Of a DNA stretch of 64,000 bases, positions 8,033 to 57,458 are shown in pieces. The notes below the pieces were generated by a model, which saw only the letters and a list, made by a program, of their open reading frames with translations, was not told the DNA's origin and made no database searches. Source of the DNA: Candidatus Micrarchaeia archaeon. GTDB taxonomy: Archaea; Micrarchaeota; Micrarchaeia; Micrarchaeales; CABMGC01. The translations under genes were made by a program, and so were the position numbers. Numbering within the stretch: the first letter of the stretch is position 1; each line of letters opens with the position of its first letter. Location of the stretch: positions 25,712 through 89,711 of the forward strand of contig JBMFIM010000001.1 of assembly GCA_049976305.1 (NCBI GenBank). The letters are read 5' to 3'.

Positions 8033-8845
8033 TCACCTGCTTATCAGCCTTAGCAATTGCATAATGACATAGGCAGGTTCGTAGGTGATTGGAGATATCA
8101 AAATCCCCTGGCTCAAGGCAGCATAGTCATTTCCTACACTTACGTTGACTATAAGCGTTTCGGGAAAAACCTTTTTGACAAGCGAGCTCGTAGCTGACGC
8201 TACAAAAAGTTTGAAATGGTAAACGCCAGGCTCGTTCTCGTACACGGGCAAATAGAAGGTTGTGGGAGTATCTTTCTTTGCTATTACCTCATAGCTCTCG
8301 GCAAAGGCGGGAAGGCCCTGGGTATATAGCAAGAAAGGATCGTCTGAAGCTCCTGTGTTGTTTATGAAAATGTGGAGGTTTACTGGCTGGCCTACTCCGC
8401 TGTGCAAAACCAACGGCGAGACATTGGCTATTAGCACATCTGGCGTGACATTGATAAAGGCAGTAAAAGTAAGATTGCCAAGGCCTGAATAATTTCCTAT
8501 GTTGACAGCCCTTGCCACTATGGCATATGTGCCGTTTGGCGCATTCTGAGCGACTGTTATTTTAAGCTTCATTGGATTAGCGTAAAGCGGCGAAGGCTGA
8601 GACGTCCATCCAGAAGGCAGGCTTATTGTTTGCAAAGTGTCCCAACCTATGTTTATCATCATGCCGTTTGCATTGGTAGTATCTGCATCTGCATCTATAT
8701 AGAAGCTTTCGCCAGGCCCCACCTTTCCTAAATAAAGGCTACTGCCATTGTGGAGTGTGGCCTGTACAGGATAAGTCAAGCTAAGGTATGCTGCATTAGC
8801 AAGCACCATAGAAGCAAAGGCAAACAACAAAGGCAAAAGCTTCAT
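8033..8845 (-). CDS. Secreted protein with signal peptide and many N-glycosylation sequons
   Basis: The signal peptide is MKLLPLLFAFASMVLANA. At least 8 N-x-S/T sequons are present (NGS, NGT, NYS, NLT, NVT, NVS, NNT). The composition is beta-rich. Confidence 0.55.
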   Translation of the reverse strand: MKLLPLLFAFASMVLANAAYLSLTYPVQATLHNGSSLYLGKVGPGESFYIDADADTTNANGMMINIGWDTLQTISLPSGWTSQPSPLYANPMKLKITVAQNAPNGTYAIVARAVNIGNYSGLGNLTFTAFINVTPDVLIANVSPLVLHSGVGQPVNLHIFINNTGASDDPFLLYTQGLPAFAESYEVIAKKDTPTTFYLPVYENEPGVYHFKLFVASATSSLVKKVFPETLIVNVSVGNDYAALSQGILISPITYEPAYVIMQLLRLISR

Positions 8846-30098: not shown

Positions 30099-30193
30099 GG
30101 GCCCGTAGCTCAGCTTGGACAGAGCGGCGCCGTCCTAAGGCGAAGGCCGTGGGTTCAAAATAAGCTTGGCTTATGACAATCCCACCGGGCCCG
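30099..30193 (+). tRNA. tRNA-Arg (CCU) with a 20-nt intron in the T-loop (59/60; intron 30160..30179)
   Basis: It folds as GGGCCCG-TA-GCTC-AGCTTGGACA-GAGC-G-GCGCC-GTCCTAA-GGCGA-AGGCC-GTGGG-TTCAAA[ATAAGCTTGGCTTATGACAA]T-CCCAC-CGGGCCC-G. Removing 20 nt gives a standard 75-nt cloverleaf. The insert folds as a bulge-helix-bulge (see finding). Position 32 is G and 27:43 is G.A. Confidence 0.8.
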
Positions 30194-34341: not shown

Positions 34342-34458
34342 GCCAGGATGGCGGAATCCGGTAACGCGTACGCCTGGAGGCTCTCCCAGGTAGCGTATGG
34401 CTCTTCCGAGCCTTCTGGGTTCAAAACAGCTTCTGCTGGGAAAATCCCAGTCCTGGCG
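34342..34458 (+). tRNA. tRNA-Ser (GGA), type II, with two introns (12 nt at 37/38, 34380..34391; 19 nt at 59/60, 34426..34444)
   Basis: It folds as GCCAGGA-TG-GCGG-AATCCGGTA-ACGC-G-TACGC-CTGGAG[GCTCTCCCAGGT]A-GCGTA-T-GGCTC-TTCC-GAGCC-TTC-CTGGG-TTCAAA[ACAGCTTCTGCTGGGAAAA]T-CCCAG-TCCTGGC-G. It has a long variable arm, and the mature length is 86 nt. Confidence 0.8.
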
Positions 34459-54155: not shown

Positions 54156-54254
54156 GCGGGGGTGGCAGAGCTTGGCCAAATGCGCAGGACTGAGGTCTTG
54201 CCGCAGAACTCCTGTGGTTTAGAACCTGCGTGAGTTCAAATCTCACCCCCCGCA
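54156..54254 (+). tRNA. tRNA-Leu (GAG), type II, with 13-nt intron at 37/38 (54196..54208)
   Basis: It folds as GCGGGGG-TG-GCA-GAGCTTGGCCAAA-TGC-G-CAGGA-CTGAGG[TCTTGCCGCAGAA]C-TCCTG-T-GGTT-TAG-AACC-TGC-GTGAG-TTCAAAT-CTCAC-CCCCCGC-A. Its first base directly follows the rpoD stop codon. Confidence 0.85.
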
Positions 54255-55269: not shown

Positions 55270-55470
55270 ATGATGATACCGGTGAGATGCTTTTCATGCG
55301 GCCAAGTAATAGCAGACAAATGGGAGGAGTTTGACAGGCGTGTTCACAAGAATGGCGAAGATGCCGGAAAGGTGCTTGACGAGCTAGGGGTAAAAAGGTA
55401 CTGCTGCAGAAGGATGCTTATAAGCCATGTGGACTTGATAGACGAGATAATAGAGTATACGCGTAAGTGA
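55270..55470 (+). CDS. rpoN: RNA polymerase subunit N (Rpo10)
   Basis: It carries [14 protein letters not shown]...[13 protein letters not shown] + 4 nt precedes the ATG at 55270, and the track ORF start at 55192 lies inside rps9. Confidence 0.9.
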
Positions 55471-55528
55471 AAACGAAAAGCATTTATGAATAAATGGGTT
55501 AATATGTTAGGCCAGGTTAGTGCTTTGC

Positions 55529-55614
55529 GGGGTCGTCTGCTAGCCTGGTAGGCTCTGCGCTTAGGGAGCGCATGACCCGAGAAAAATTCGGGAATTCAAA
55601 TCTCGGCGACCCCG
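55529..55614 (+). tRNA. tRNA-Pro with A34 anticodon (AGG) and a 13-nt intron at 53/54 (55582..55594)
   Basis: It folds as GGGGTCG-TC-TGCT-AGCCTGGTA-GGCT-C-TGCGC-TTAGGGA-GCGCA-TGAC-CCGAG[AAAAATTCGGGAA]TTCAAAT-CTCGG-CGACCCC-G. The D-stem has a U10.U25 mismatch, and G37 is present as in Pro tRNAs. The mature length is 73 nt. Confidence 0.65.
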
Positions 55615-55622
55615 GTGATTTA

Positions 55623-56333
55623 ATGGCAGAAGCTGGAACAGAAGCCGAAAATGTGGCGAATGCAAGCCAAGCAGAGGAGCAGAAGGCAGAGAAGCCTAAA
55701 AAGCAGAAAAGGCAGAAGGAGCAGCAACCTACTGACGCTTATACTGAGTACTTGGAAGCTGGAATGCAAATAGGAGCAATGATAAAGGCGCCAGGCATGT
55801 CTAGATTTATTTTCAAAACTAGAGAAGACGGCCTTCACCTTTTTGATATAAAGACTGTGCTTGACAGGATTGCTTTAGCAGCCAAGTTTCTGGCAAGATA
55901 CCCTTCTGAGAATATAGTGGTTACTGCGTCTAGAGTCTATGCCCTTACTCCCGCAAAGAAGTTTGCGGAAATAACAGGGGCAAAGCTGATAACAGGCAGG
56001 GTGCTGCCTGGCATATTCACAAATCCTAACAAAGAAGGCTATGTGGAGCCAGATGTGGTATTGGTAAGCGATCCTAGGAATGAGCATCAAGCAGTGAGCG
56101 AGGCAAGTAAGATAAACATACCAGTAGTTGCGCTTGTAGATACTGACAATTGGATAAAGAACATAGATCTGATAGTACCGTGCAACAACAAAGGAAGAAA
56201 GTCTTTAGCAATGATCTACTTCCTACTTACGAAAGAACTACTAAAAGCAAAAGGGCAAATAAAATCAGACGAAGAATTCAAGTATACGCCAGCTGATTTT
56301 GAGGCAAAAATAGAGCTCAAGCAGTCAAAATAG
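55623..56333 (+). CDS. rps2: Ribosomal protein uS2
   Basis: It carries EYLEAGMQIGA...FIFKTREDGLHLFDI...VLVSDPRNEHQAVSEASKINIPVVALVDTD. The track start at 55572 lies in the tRNA, so I use ATG 55623. Confidence 0.92.
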   Translation: MAEAGTEAENVANASQAEEQKAEKPKKQKRQKEQQPTDAYTEYLEAGMQIGAMIKAPGMSRFIFKTREDGLHLFDIKTVLDRIALAAKFLARYPSENIVVTASRVYALTPAKKFAEITGAKLITGRVLPGIFTNPNKEGYVEPDVVLVSDPRNEHQAVSEASKINIPVVALVDTDNWIKNIDLIVPCNNKGRKSLAMIYFLLTKELLKAKGQIKSDEEFKYTPADFEAKIELKQSK

Positions 56334-57334: not shown

Positions 57335-57458
57335 AAGCATCAGCACTCAAGATCTTCATCACTTCTCAGGTTTATAGATCATCATGCAATAGTGCATAGC
57401 CACAAAAAGATATTTATTTATTCGCTCATATAAAAACTACTTCGTATCTGGTGTTTTT

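Follow-up and report, generated by a model that had tools for sequence, protein, structure and literature searches.

The window analysed here, a stretch of 64,000 nucleotides from a Candidatus Micrarchaeia archaeon (contig JBMFIM010000001.1, positions 25,712 to 89,711, forward strand), contains a proline tRNA gene with the anticodon AGG, that is, with an adenosine at the wobble position (A34), and with a 13-nucleotide intron in its T-arm. Comparison with related sequences indicates that this is very probably a complete, functional-type tRNA-Pro(AGG) gene that has replaced the GGG isoacceptor. Some 80 genomes have it in the same syntenic position, with compensatory stem changes, which is far beyond chance, and purifying selection appears to keep A34 in about 80 archaeal lineages at species level. 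The gene and its parts are:

55529..55614, forward strand: complete tRNA-Pro(AGG) gene with two exons and one intron, CCA not encoded (spliced ARAGORN call, orthologues, covariation)
55529..55581, forward strand: exon 1, tRNA positions 1-53 (acceptor 5' strand, D-arm, anticodon arm, variable loop, T-stem 5' strand)
55563..55565, forward strand: anticodon AGG, with A34 at 55563 and G37 at 55566 (invariant in 77 of 77 informative related loci)
55582..55594, forward strand: non-canonical intron of 13 nucleotides, AAAAATTCGGGAA, at position 53/54 (excision restores the T-arm)
55595..55614, forward strand: exon 2 (T-loop TTCAAAT, T-stem 3' strand, acceptor 3' strand, discriminator G73)

Read along the forward strand, the gene is laid out as GGGGTCG TC TGCT AGCCTGGTA GGCT C TGCGC TTAGGGA GCGCA TGAC CCGAG AAAAATTCGGGAA TTCAAAT CTCGG CGACCCC G. 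The acceptor stem (GGGGTCG/CGACCCC), the anticodon arm (TGCGC-TTAGGGA-GCGCA), the AGG anticodon and G37 are all found where an earlier note, made from the letters of the window alone, had placed them, together with a D-arm (TGCT/GGCT) that has a U10.U25 mismatch and a T-stem (CCGAG/CTCGG) split after G53 by the intron. Removal of 55582..55594 leaves a normal cloverleaf of 73 nucleotides, which ARAGORN calls tRNA-Pro(agg), as the 13-nucleotide intron proposed by the same note at position 53/54 had implied. The T-loop predicted here, TTCAAAT, is exactly that of an orthologue lacking the intron (L046), which makes the boundary of the intron unambiguous and fixes the mature sequence. The spliced form has the cloverleaf and the conserved bases of a canonical elongator tRNA (RF00005): U8, A14, G18G19, U33, G53-C61 and U54U55C56 are among the invariant columns of the orthologue alignment, and the anticodon and T-loop are likewise invariant. 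It also has the features of a proline tRNA, with a UUAGGGA loop and with G35, G36 and G37 invariant across 77 loci; G35 and G36 are the established identity bases for prolyl-tRNA synthetase (ProRS), and G37 is the site of m1G37. The unspliced gene was missed by ARAGORN, with intron mode on or off, although four other tRNAs of the window were detected, and it had no Rfam match at the gathering score or at E<=1. Standard finders miss the gene because of its T-arm intron, which is a limitation of the tools and not evidence against the gene.

Homologues of the window's S2 protein with a named source are for the most part labelled Candidatus Micrarchaeia/Micrarchaeota, which is a DPANN lineage, and a few bear the label Marsarchaeota. 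Relatives were collected by scanning one genome per GTDB species with a ribosomal protein S2 alignment, which gave 80 Micrarchaeota loci (L002-L081). Fully parsed tRNAs lie directly 5' of rps2 in 75 of these, and two loci at contig ends retain the anticodon arm, giving 77 informative loci; one of the other three retains the tRNA 3' end only and two have no tRNA at the site. The anticodon is AGG in all 77 informative loci from these 80 closest species genomes. Counts of loops, discriminators and introns refer to a slightly different set of 77 parsed sequences, namely the 75 genome loci, the window and its duplicate L001; the anticodon loop is UUAGGGA in 64 of them, CUAGGGC in 7 and UUAGGGG in 6.

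The earlier note had left three explanations for A34: a base error (G34 read as A), a pseudogene or a genuinely unusual decoder. For a sequencing or assembly error, only the rarity of A34 in archaea can be cited. Contig JBMFKR010000007.1 at NCBI (GCA_049972015.1) is identical to the window over all 501 nucleotides compared around the tRNA and encodes an identical S9 protein, A34 is present in a 97%-related species (L002), and 77 genomes of other species share this A, as do many assemblies from ENA, Logan and JGI, several relatives being represented in independent NCBI, ENA, Logan and JGI assemblies. Because the same A34 is found across related species and independent assemblies, a base error is excluded for practical purposes.

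That the locus is a decayed or silent copy of tRNA-Pro(GGG) might be argued from the failure of standard tools to find it, from the U10.U25 mismatch, from the discriminator G73 and from A34 itself. However, 40 distinct spliced orthologue sequences align without ambiguity, and their acceptor, anticodon and T stems are paired in 100% of cells. Eight stem pairs show changes on both sides, a number reached by none of 500 shuffles, whereas a control in which the partner was slid by one to three columns gave at most two such pairs. The anticodon, the T-loop, G18G19 and U8 do not vary, and the tools fail solely through the T-arm intron; intron-less L046 scores 52.7 bits on RF00005 (gathering threshold 29). 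The mismatch and the discriminator, both correctly noted earlier, are shared by the clade: U10.U25 is found in 36 of the 40 distinct sequences, the other four having G10.U25, and G73 in 51 of 77 sequences against A73 in 26. They are thus, on comparative grounds, lineage traits rather than signs of decay. A pseudogene is therefore hardly credible, and orthologue conservation and covariation support the remaining option, an unusual decoder.

Two side observations concern the relatives. No tRNA lies between rpoN and rps2 in L011 and L051; rpoN abuts rps2 in L011, and the context of rps2 differs in L051. Further, L039, L042 and L031/L038/L044/L057 carry the Micrarchaeota-type operon and tRNA but were deposited as 'bacterium', 'Candidatus Saccharimonadales bacterium' and 'Candidatus Marsarchaeota', titles that are probably bin or taxonomy mislabels.

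How old is A34? Clustering of 243 S2 sequences by the unweighted pair group method with arithmetic mean (UPGMA), which renders clade relationships roughly, separated a cluster of 217 from a cluster of 24. AGG was found in every tested member of the large cluster (82, window included; hereafter the A clade), and also in the unclustered P0107. In the small cluster (the G clade), GGG occupies the rpoN-tRNA-rps2 position in the four members tested. We had considered A34 as a trait of the whole phylum and rejected this, since the sister clade carries GGG at the same locus. Among the GGG genes, L227 has no intron, L230 has one at 59/60, and L233 and L234 have introns at both 53/54 and 59/60, with an intron junction ...TTTCGGGAA|TTCAAA in common with the window's clade. 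The tRNA-Pro published for ARMAN-2 is labelled GGG (PMC3239211), and the sister-clade GGG genes with both introns match it. The same locus and the same intron sites and junction argue that the AGG and GGG genes are orthologous and that the introns are older than the split. The two types differ at pair 5:68 (U-A in AGG genes versus C-G in GGG genes), at three anticodon-stem pairs (UGYGC/GCRCA versus CCASC/GSUGG) and at position 38, and the remodelled stem suggests that the anticodon arm was retuned. Since GGG is the general archaeal state, A34 is derived, by a single G-to-A change. This change very probably took place in the ancestor of a large Micrarchaeia clade, along with those at position 38, pair 5:68 and the three anticodon-stem pairs. 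A34 has been retained ever since; we saw no A34-to-G34 reversal among about 80 lineages spanning 30-60% GC.

The earlier note had also proposed an inventory of the other tRNA-Pro genes. A CGG gene co-exists with AGG on one contig, and no GGG gene appeared in the window and related loci covered. The CGG gene was found as follows. On at least eight contigs, CGG or UGG genes have a Micrarchaeota-type body, marked by the 3' side of the D-loop and stem (AGCYTGGT(T)AGGCT), by UCUGCUAG in five contigs, by a GGGGAGY acceptor and CCGNG T-stem, and by G73 in six of the eight. One of these contigs, L083, carries a GTPase gene whose named best matches are almost all Micrarchaeota (two are labelled Marsarchaeota). 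The orthologue of this GTPase lies on JAGWHC010000001.1, a 658-kb contig that also has an AGG gene (L080), and 2 kb from the GTPase orthologue is an intron-less tRNA-Pro(CGG), which retains a CCACC/GGUGG anticodon stem in this A-clade genome. These genes emerged from a metagenome scan for non-A34 versions of the tRNA body, in which the matches listed included 120 archaeal tRNA-Pro genes (L082-L201). Most of the listed matches are CGG and UGG tRNAs of other archaea, and no G34 orthologues were found among them. As a separate observation, the tRNA-Pro genes with a GCTAG...AGGCT D-arm and a non-A wobble base among the 120 matches listed comprise 62 CGG, 57 UGG and 1 GGG. Either the GGG body of other lineages differs, or some of these lineages also use AGG.

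This inventory bears on the idea that AGG is the only proline tRNA, reading all four CCN codons by superwobble as a trait of genome reduction. DPANN genomes are indeed reduced, and in E. coli each of the four proline codons can be read by a tRNA(AGG) without modification (PMC11066159). However, one A-clade genome has an intact CGG gene and AGG on a single contig, metagenomes contain UGG and CGG genes of the Micrarchaeota type, and ARMAN-2 has both CGG and UGG (PMC3239211). The presence of CGG beside AGG therefore means that AGG is not a sole superwobbling tRNA and that it fills the GGG slot, and we consider the sole-tRNA idea most improbable. In the division of labour that we propose, AGG would take the CCU/CCC half of the proline box, and CGG and apparently UGG genes would cover CCG and CCA.

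Codon usage, another check suggested in the earlier note, is consistent with a wobble A. We compared CCU/(CCU+CCC) with the corresponding ratio in the other seven four-codon boxes. Across 79 of the L002-L081 loci, nearly all of the A clade (100,293 codons), the U/(U+C) fraction is 0.64 for proline and 0.22-0.54 for the other boxes, an odds ratio of 2.4. It is 0.54 for proline on other archaeal contigs (112 loci, 145,499 codons, from lineages that are not identified and with different gene sets), where the other boxes place proline in mid-range (odds ratio 1.04), and 0.53 in the small G-clade sample (four loci, 62 CCY codons), below Ser and Leu (odds ratio 1.27). Proline is the first box in 47 of the 79 A-clade loci and the highest box in every GC stratum. 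Enrichment of CCU over CCC is thus specific to A-clade genomes; it fits a wobble A and does not tell A from inosine (I). In the window itself, proline codons are 40% CCU, 11% CCC, 33% CCA and 16% CCG, but codon usage of the window by itself was discarded as evidence, CUU and UCU being equally favoured there.

Is A34 left unmodified? In the mechanism that we favour, it would stay undeaminated, forming a Watson-Crick pair with U and reading CCC through an A:C mismatch, which would be tolerated because the other two codon positions form G:C pairs. Our analysis gives an undeaminated A34 in tRNA-Pro(AGG) about an even chance. We lean towards it because the box that switched is one with two G:C pairs, because Leu and Ser did not switch, and because no gene with a cytidine deaminase (CDA) fold was found in the limited sequence available. 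The tRNA-Leu of the window has the anticodon GAG and its tRNA-Ser has GGA, both keeping G34, and in about 65 loci of relatives ARAGORN finds Leu(GAG) beside rpoD; proline is the only one of these three boxes switched to A34. According to PMC11066159, which cites Chen et al. 2002 on Salmonella, a tRNA(AGG) with unmodified A34 decodes CCU about as well as CCC, a tRNA(AGG) derived from M. jannaschii works unmodified in E. coli, and the E. coli TadA deaminase does not modify the AGG anticodon.

The same part of the literature describes archaea as having neither ANN tRNAs nor A34 deaminases (PMC8007984 and PMC11066159), and a recent survey gives 3 ANN anticodons among 10,517 archaeal tRNAs (bioRxiv 10.64898/2026.05.15.725136). 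The earlier statement that archaea almost never use A34 agrees with this, but it missed a published exception within DPANN, the ARMAN-4/-5 lineages (PMC3239211). The earlier note further pointed to a TadA/ADAT homologue as something to look for. We found no (H/C)AE...PCxxC motif of the CDA fold in the six frames of the window, and tblastn with an E. coli TadA query gave no credible match in the window or in L001-L081, which amounts to less than 10% of one genome. The terms tadA, K11991 and COG0590 were not found in the supplements of comparative-genomics papers on DPANN and Micrarchaeota.

Alternatively, A34 may be deaminated to inosine, or carry some other A-specific modification, through the action of an unrecognised archaeal enzyme. 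With inosine, the tRNA would read CCU, CCC and CCA, in a eukaryote-like strategy of IGG, UGG and CGG. The absolute conservation of A34 in about 80 lineages would fit an A-specific enzyme or the wider reading range of I34, and the isoacceptor set of AGG and CGG, with UGG, mirrors that of eukaryotes. Fujishima et al. noted a resemblance to eukaryotic decoding for ARMAN-4/-5 in 2011 (PMC3239211), and tRNA(ANN) and a deaminase are reported in the literature almost always to co-occur. That same literature knows no archaeal A34 deaminase, however, and the window and fetched loci, a small part of a genome, yielded neither a CDA-fold motif nor a TadA-like match. A switch confined to the proline box, with Leu and Ser at G34, is unlike the work of a multi-substrate ADAT-like enzyme. 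E. coli TadA leaves an AGG anticodon alone, and proline is exactly the box in which unmodified A34 is known to work (PMC11066159). We regard such a modification as possible but doubtful. If true, Archaea would have their first wobble-inosine system, which would repeat eukaryotic ADAT decoding independently and in a single box, and phylogenetic profiling could find the enzyme, since the sister clades divide cleanly into A34 and G34.

Several points weigh against an AGG gene that has displaced GGG and works with unmodified A34. Were A34 and G34 almost interchangeable as decoders, A should have gone back to G in some lineages, and none was seen to do so; this speaks for a stronger A-specific constraint than an unmodified A34 predicts, a modification enzyme, for example. 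The 64-kb window yielded no recognised gene for a deaminase, a splicing endonuclease or a ligase. Neither the window nor some 0.5 Mb from related loci contained a tRNA-Pro(GGG), and a copy elsewhere is possible. The codon-usage controls, finally, have the limits of gene content, lineage and sample size given above.

The intron would be removed at a predicted splice motif:

55576..55592, forward strand: relaxed bulge-helix-bulge (BHB) splice motif, of the bulge-helix-loop (BHL) or HBh' type (minimum free energy fold, energy evaluation, BHB cleavage rule)

In this fold, a central helix of 4 bp joins C48CCG51 (55576-55579) to CGGG of the intron (55589-55592), the bulge AA|U (55593-55595) holds the 3' splice site, and an outer helix is formed by UGA/UCA. 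For the 5' splice site, the fold gives a position in the enclosed 9-nucleotide loop or at the end of a 6-bp hairpin, which is also the minimum free energy fold. In canonical BHB motifs the cut falls 2 nucleotides 3' of the helix strand. The strict hBHBh' form, with a 4-bp helix and two 3-nucleotide bulges, is not found here, the 5' site being in a loop or at a hairpin end; the features of the relaxed form are present, namely the 4-bp helix, one proper bulge, a site shared by orthologues and restoration of the tRNA on removal. The earlier note had described just this relaxed structure, and its energy is comparable with that of the T-stem fold: structures with the splice motif have -26.6 to -28.6 kcal/mol, against -26.6 with the T-stem formed, a difference of at most 2 kcal/mol.

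Related genes place the intron in a wider pattern. At 53/54, introns of 11-20 nucleotides with a ...GGGAA end, almost always CGGGAA, occur in 24 A-clade and 2 G-clade loci. At 59/60, introns of 11-33 nucleotides ending in UGRR and two further nucleotides pair with U54U55C56A57; with the 3-nucleotide bulges left on both sides, this makes a proper hBHBh' motif. In the 77 parsed sequences, 52 have only the 59/60 intron, 17 have both, 7 have only the 53/54 intron and 1 has none; the 53/54-only pattern is confined to the window's clade and L065. The relaxed form calls for an endonuclease of broad specificity, and we propose that such an archaeal enzyme, of the EndA kind, would excise the 13-nucleotide intron. 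The epsilon2 EndA of ARMAN-2, which belongs to the same phylum, cleaves relaxed BHB motifs, and the pre-tRNA-Pro of ARMAN-2 is drawn with introns at 53/54 and 59/60 (PMC3239211).

The gene lies in a conserved neighbourhood with the order rpoD, tRNA-Leu, rpl13, rps9, rpoN, tRNA-Pro, rps2. Its closest features are:

55270..55470, forward strand: rpoN (RNA polymerase subunit N), conserved upstream neighbour (Pfam RNA_pol_N on the identical NCBI contig)
55499..55506, forward strand: putative TATA-like box TTAATATG, 23-30 nucleotides 5' of the tRNA (presumed archaeal promoter)
55614-55619, forward strand: Shine-Dalgarno-like GGTGAT, overlapping the discriminator
55614..56333, forward strand: rps2 with its Shine-Dalgarno-like motif, ATG at 55623 and stop at 56333 (open reading frame list, Pfam Ribosomal_S2)

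Nearly every orthologous locus has an A/T-rich TATA-like box between about -37 and -25, and the tRNA, lying between rpoN and rps2, would be expressed from its own box of this kind. Most loci have a GGTGA motif and an ATG 8-25 nucleotides 3' of the tRNA (8 in the window), and the tRNA and rps2 are probably co-transcribed. Could the element then serve chiefly to free the rps2 mRNA, as a processing signal in the shape of a tRNA that decodes only secondarily? The short distance to the rps2 start, the abutment of the Shine-Dalgarno-like motif on the tRNA 3' end and the promoter-like box 5' of the tRNA would all fit. But the anticodon loop is invariant at G35, G36 and G37 and codon usage is shifted, neither of which a mere signal needs, and we judge a chiefly signalling role very unlikely. 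The processing and decoding roles can co-exist. In the region 55499..55625 and the orthologous loci, tRNA-Pro may double as a processed 5' leader of the rps2 mRNA.

Other tRNA genes of the window are also interrupted:

54156..54254, forward strand: tRNA-Leu(GAG), directly 3' of rpoD, with a 13-nucleotide intron TCTTGCCGCAGAA at the canonical 37/38 position (alignment to intron-less orthologues)
34342..34458, forward strand: tRNA-Ser(GGA) with two introns, 12 nucleotides in the anticodon loop and 19 nucleotides at 59/60 (missed by the tools)
30099..30193, forward strand: tRNA-Arg(CCU) with a 20-nucleotide intron at 59/60 in the T-loop (missed by ARAGORN and Rfam; the spliced form is Arg(cct) in ARAGORN)

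In the window's clade, the intron mode of ARAGORN miscalls tRNA-Leu(GAG) as tRNA-Phe(GAA). A tRNA-Ile(UAU) with a 31-nucleotide intron is found at L218, complement of 8301..8409, on the Micrarchaeota contig JAGWHD010000001.1; in 2011, ARMAN lineages were likewise reported to employ tRNA-Ile UAU and not an agmatidine-modified CAU (PMC3239211). On the reverse strand at 57337..57389, between a histone-fold gene and thioredoxin, an intergenic region has sub-threshold Rfam matches to the archaeal C/D-box small RNAs snoPyro_CD, sR5, sR41 and sR3 (best E = 0.018).

From the supposed absence of ANN tRNAs and of an A34 deaminase in archaea, reviews and the 2026 survey argue that unmodified A34 is universally selected against and that the eukaryotic inosine strategy has a bacterial origin. 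Since T-arm introns hide such genes from the finders, surveys without archaeal ANN tRNAs are biased against these lineages. The A34 and G34 sister clades form a natural experiment on what makes A34 tolerable or advantageous, with the strong G:C pairing of the codons, the remodelling of the anticodon stem and the shift of codon use towards CCU as candidate reasons, and on whether any archaeon makes I34. Both a DPANN tRNA-Pro with wobble A and the occurrence of two T-arm introns in tRNA-Pro of Micrarchaeota have been known since 2011 (PMC3239211) and are overlooked in reviews. New, as far as the literature searched shows, would be the dominance of AGG in sampled Micrarchaeota and its orthology to the GGG gene of a sister clade, as well as what appears to be a single origin without reversion, accompanied by a remodelled anticodon stem and a CCU-shifted proline box.

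How does the gene compare with known systems? In eukaryotes, tRNA-Pro(AGG) is deaminated to IGG by the heterodimeric ADAT2/ADAT3, and seven or eight boxes are switched at once. The eukaryotic cytosolic tRNA has the same anticodon, the same UUAGGG loop with G37 and the same use of AGG for GGG beside UGG and CGG; it differs in that here proline is the only switched box among those compared and no archaeal deaminase is known. Short T-arm introns at 53/54 and 59/60, with a 4-bp helix and a 3-nucleotide bulge cut after its second base, are known in Thermoproteales and other archaea whose EndA has broad specificity. The present intron resembles these non-canonical BHB/BHL introns in position and in helix and bulge geometry, unlike them in lineage and in that the endonuclease of this phylum is epsilon2 and not (alpha-beta)2.

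The nearest match to the wobble base is in ARMAN-4/-5 (Parvarchaeota), which have tRNA-Pro(AGG) without a GGG gene (Fujishima et al. 2011, Nucleic Acids Research 39:9695, PMC3239211). By the published description, theirs is likewise a DPANN tRNA-Pro with wobble A, reported to replace the G34 isoacceptor. They belong to a different phylum, however, and also have tRNA-Leu(AAG), where the window has GAG; about 15% of their tRNA genes are disrupted, and that report contains no analysis of conservation, orthology or codon usage. The Salmonella proL mutant (Chen et al. 2002, J Mol Biol 317:481) and the orthogonal tRNA(AGG) of M. jannaschii origin in E. coli (PMC11066159) also use AGG without inosine, reading CCU and CCC about equally, and the two G:C pairs of proline codons are given as the explanation. 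Those are a laboratory mutant and an engineered tRNA, whereas the gene described here would be natural and maintained across a clade. In intron architecture, the closest relative is the pre-tRNA-Pro(GGG) of Candidatus Micrarchaeum acidiphilum ARMAN-2, from the same phylum and with the same T-arm intron positions (PMC3239211, Fig. 1C). The G-clade genes L233 and L234 have exactly this architecture, and the window gene departs from these G34 genes by its A34, its remodelled anticodon stem and the loss of the 59/60 intron.

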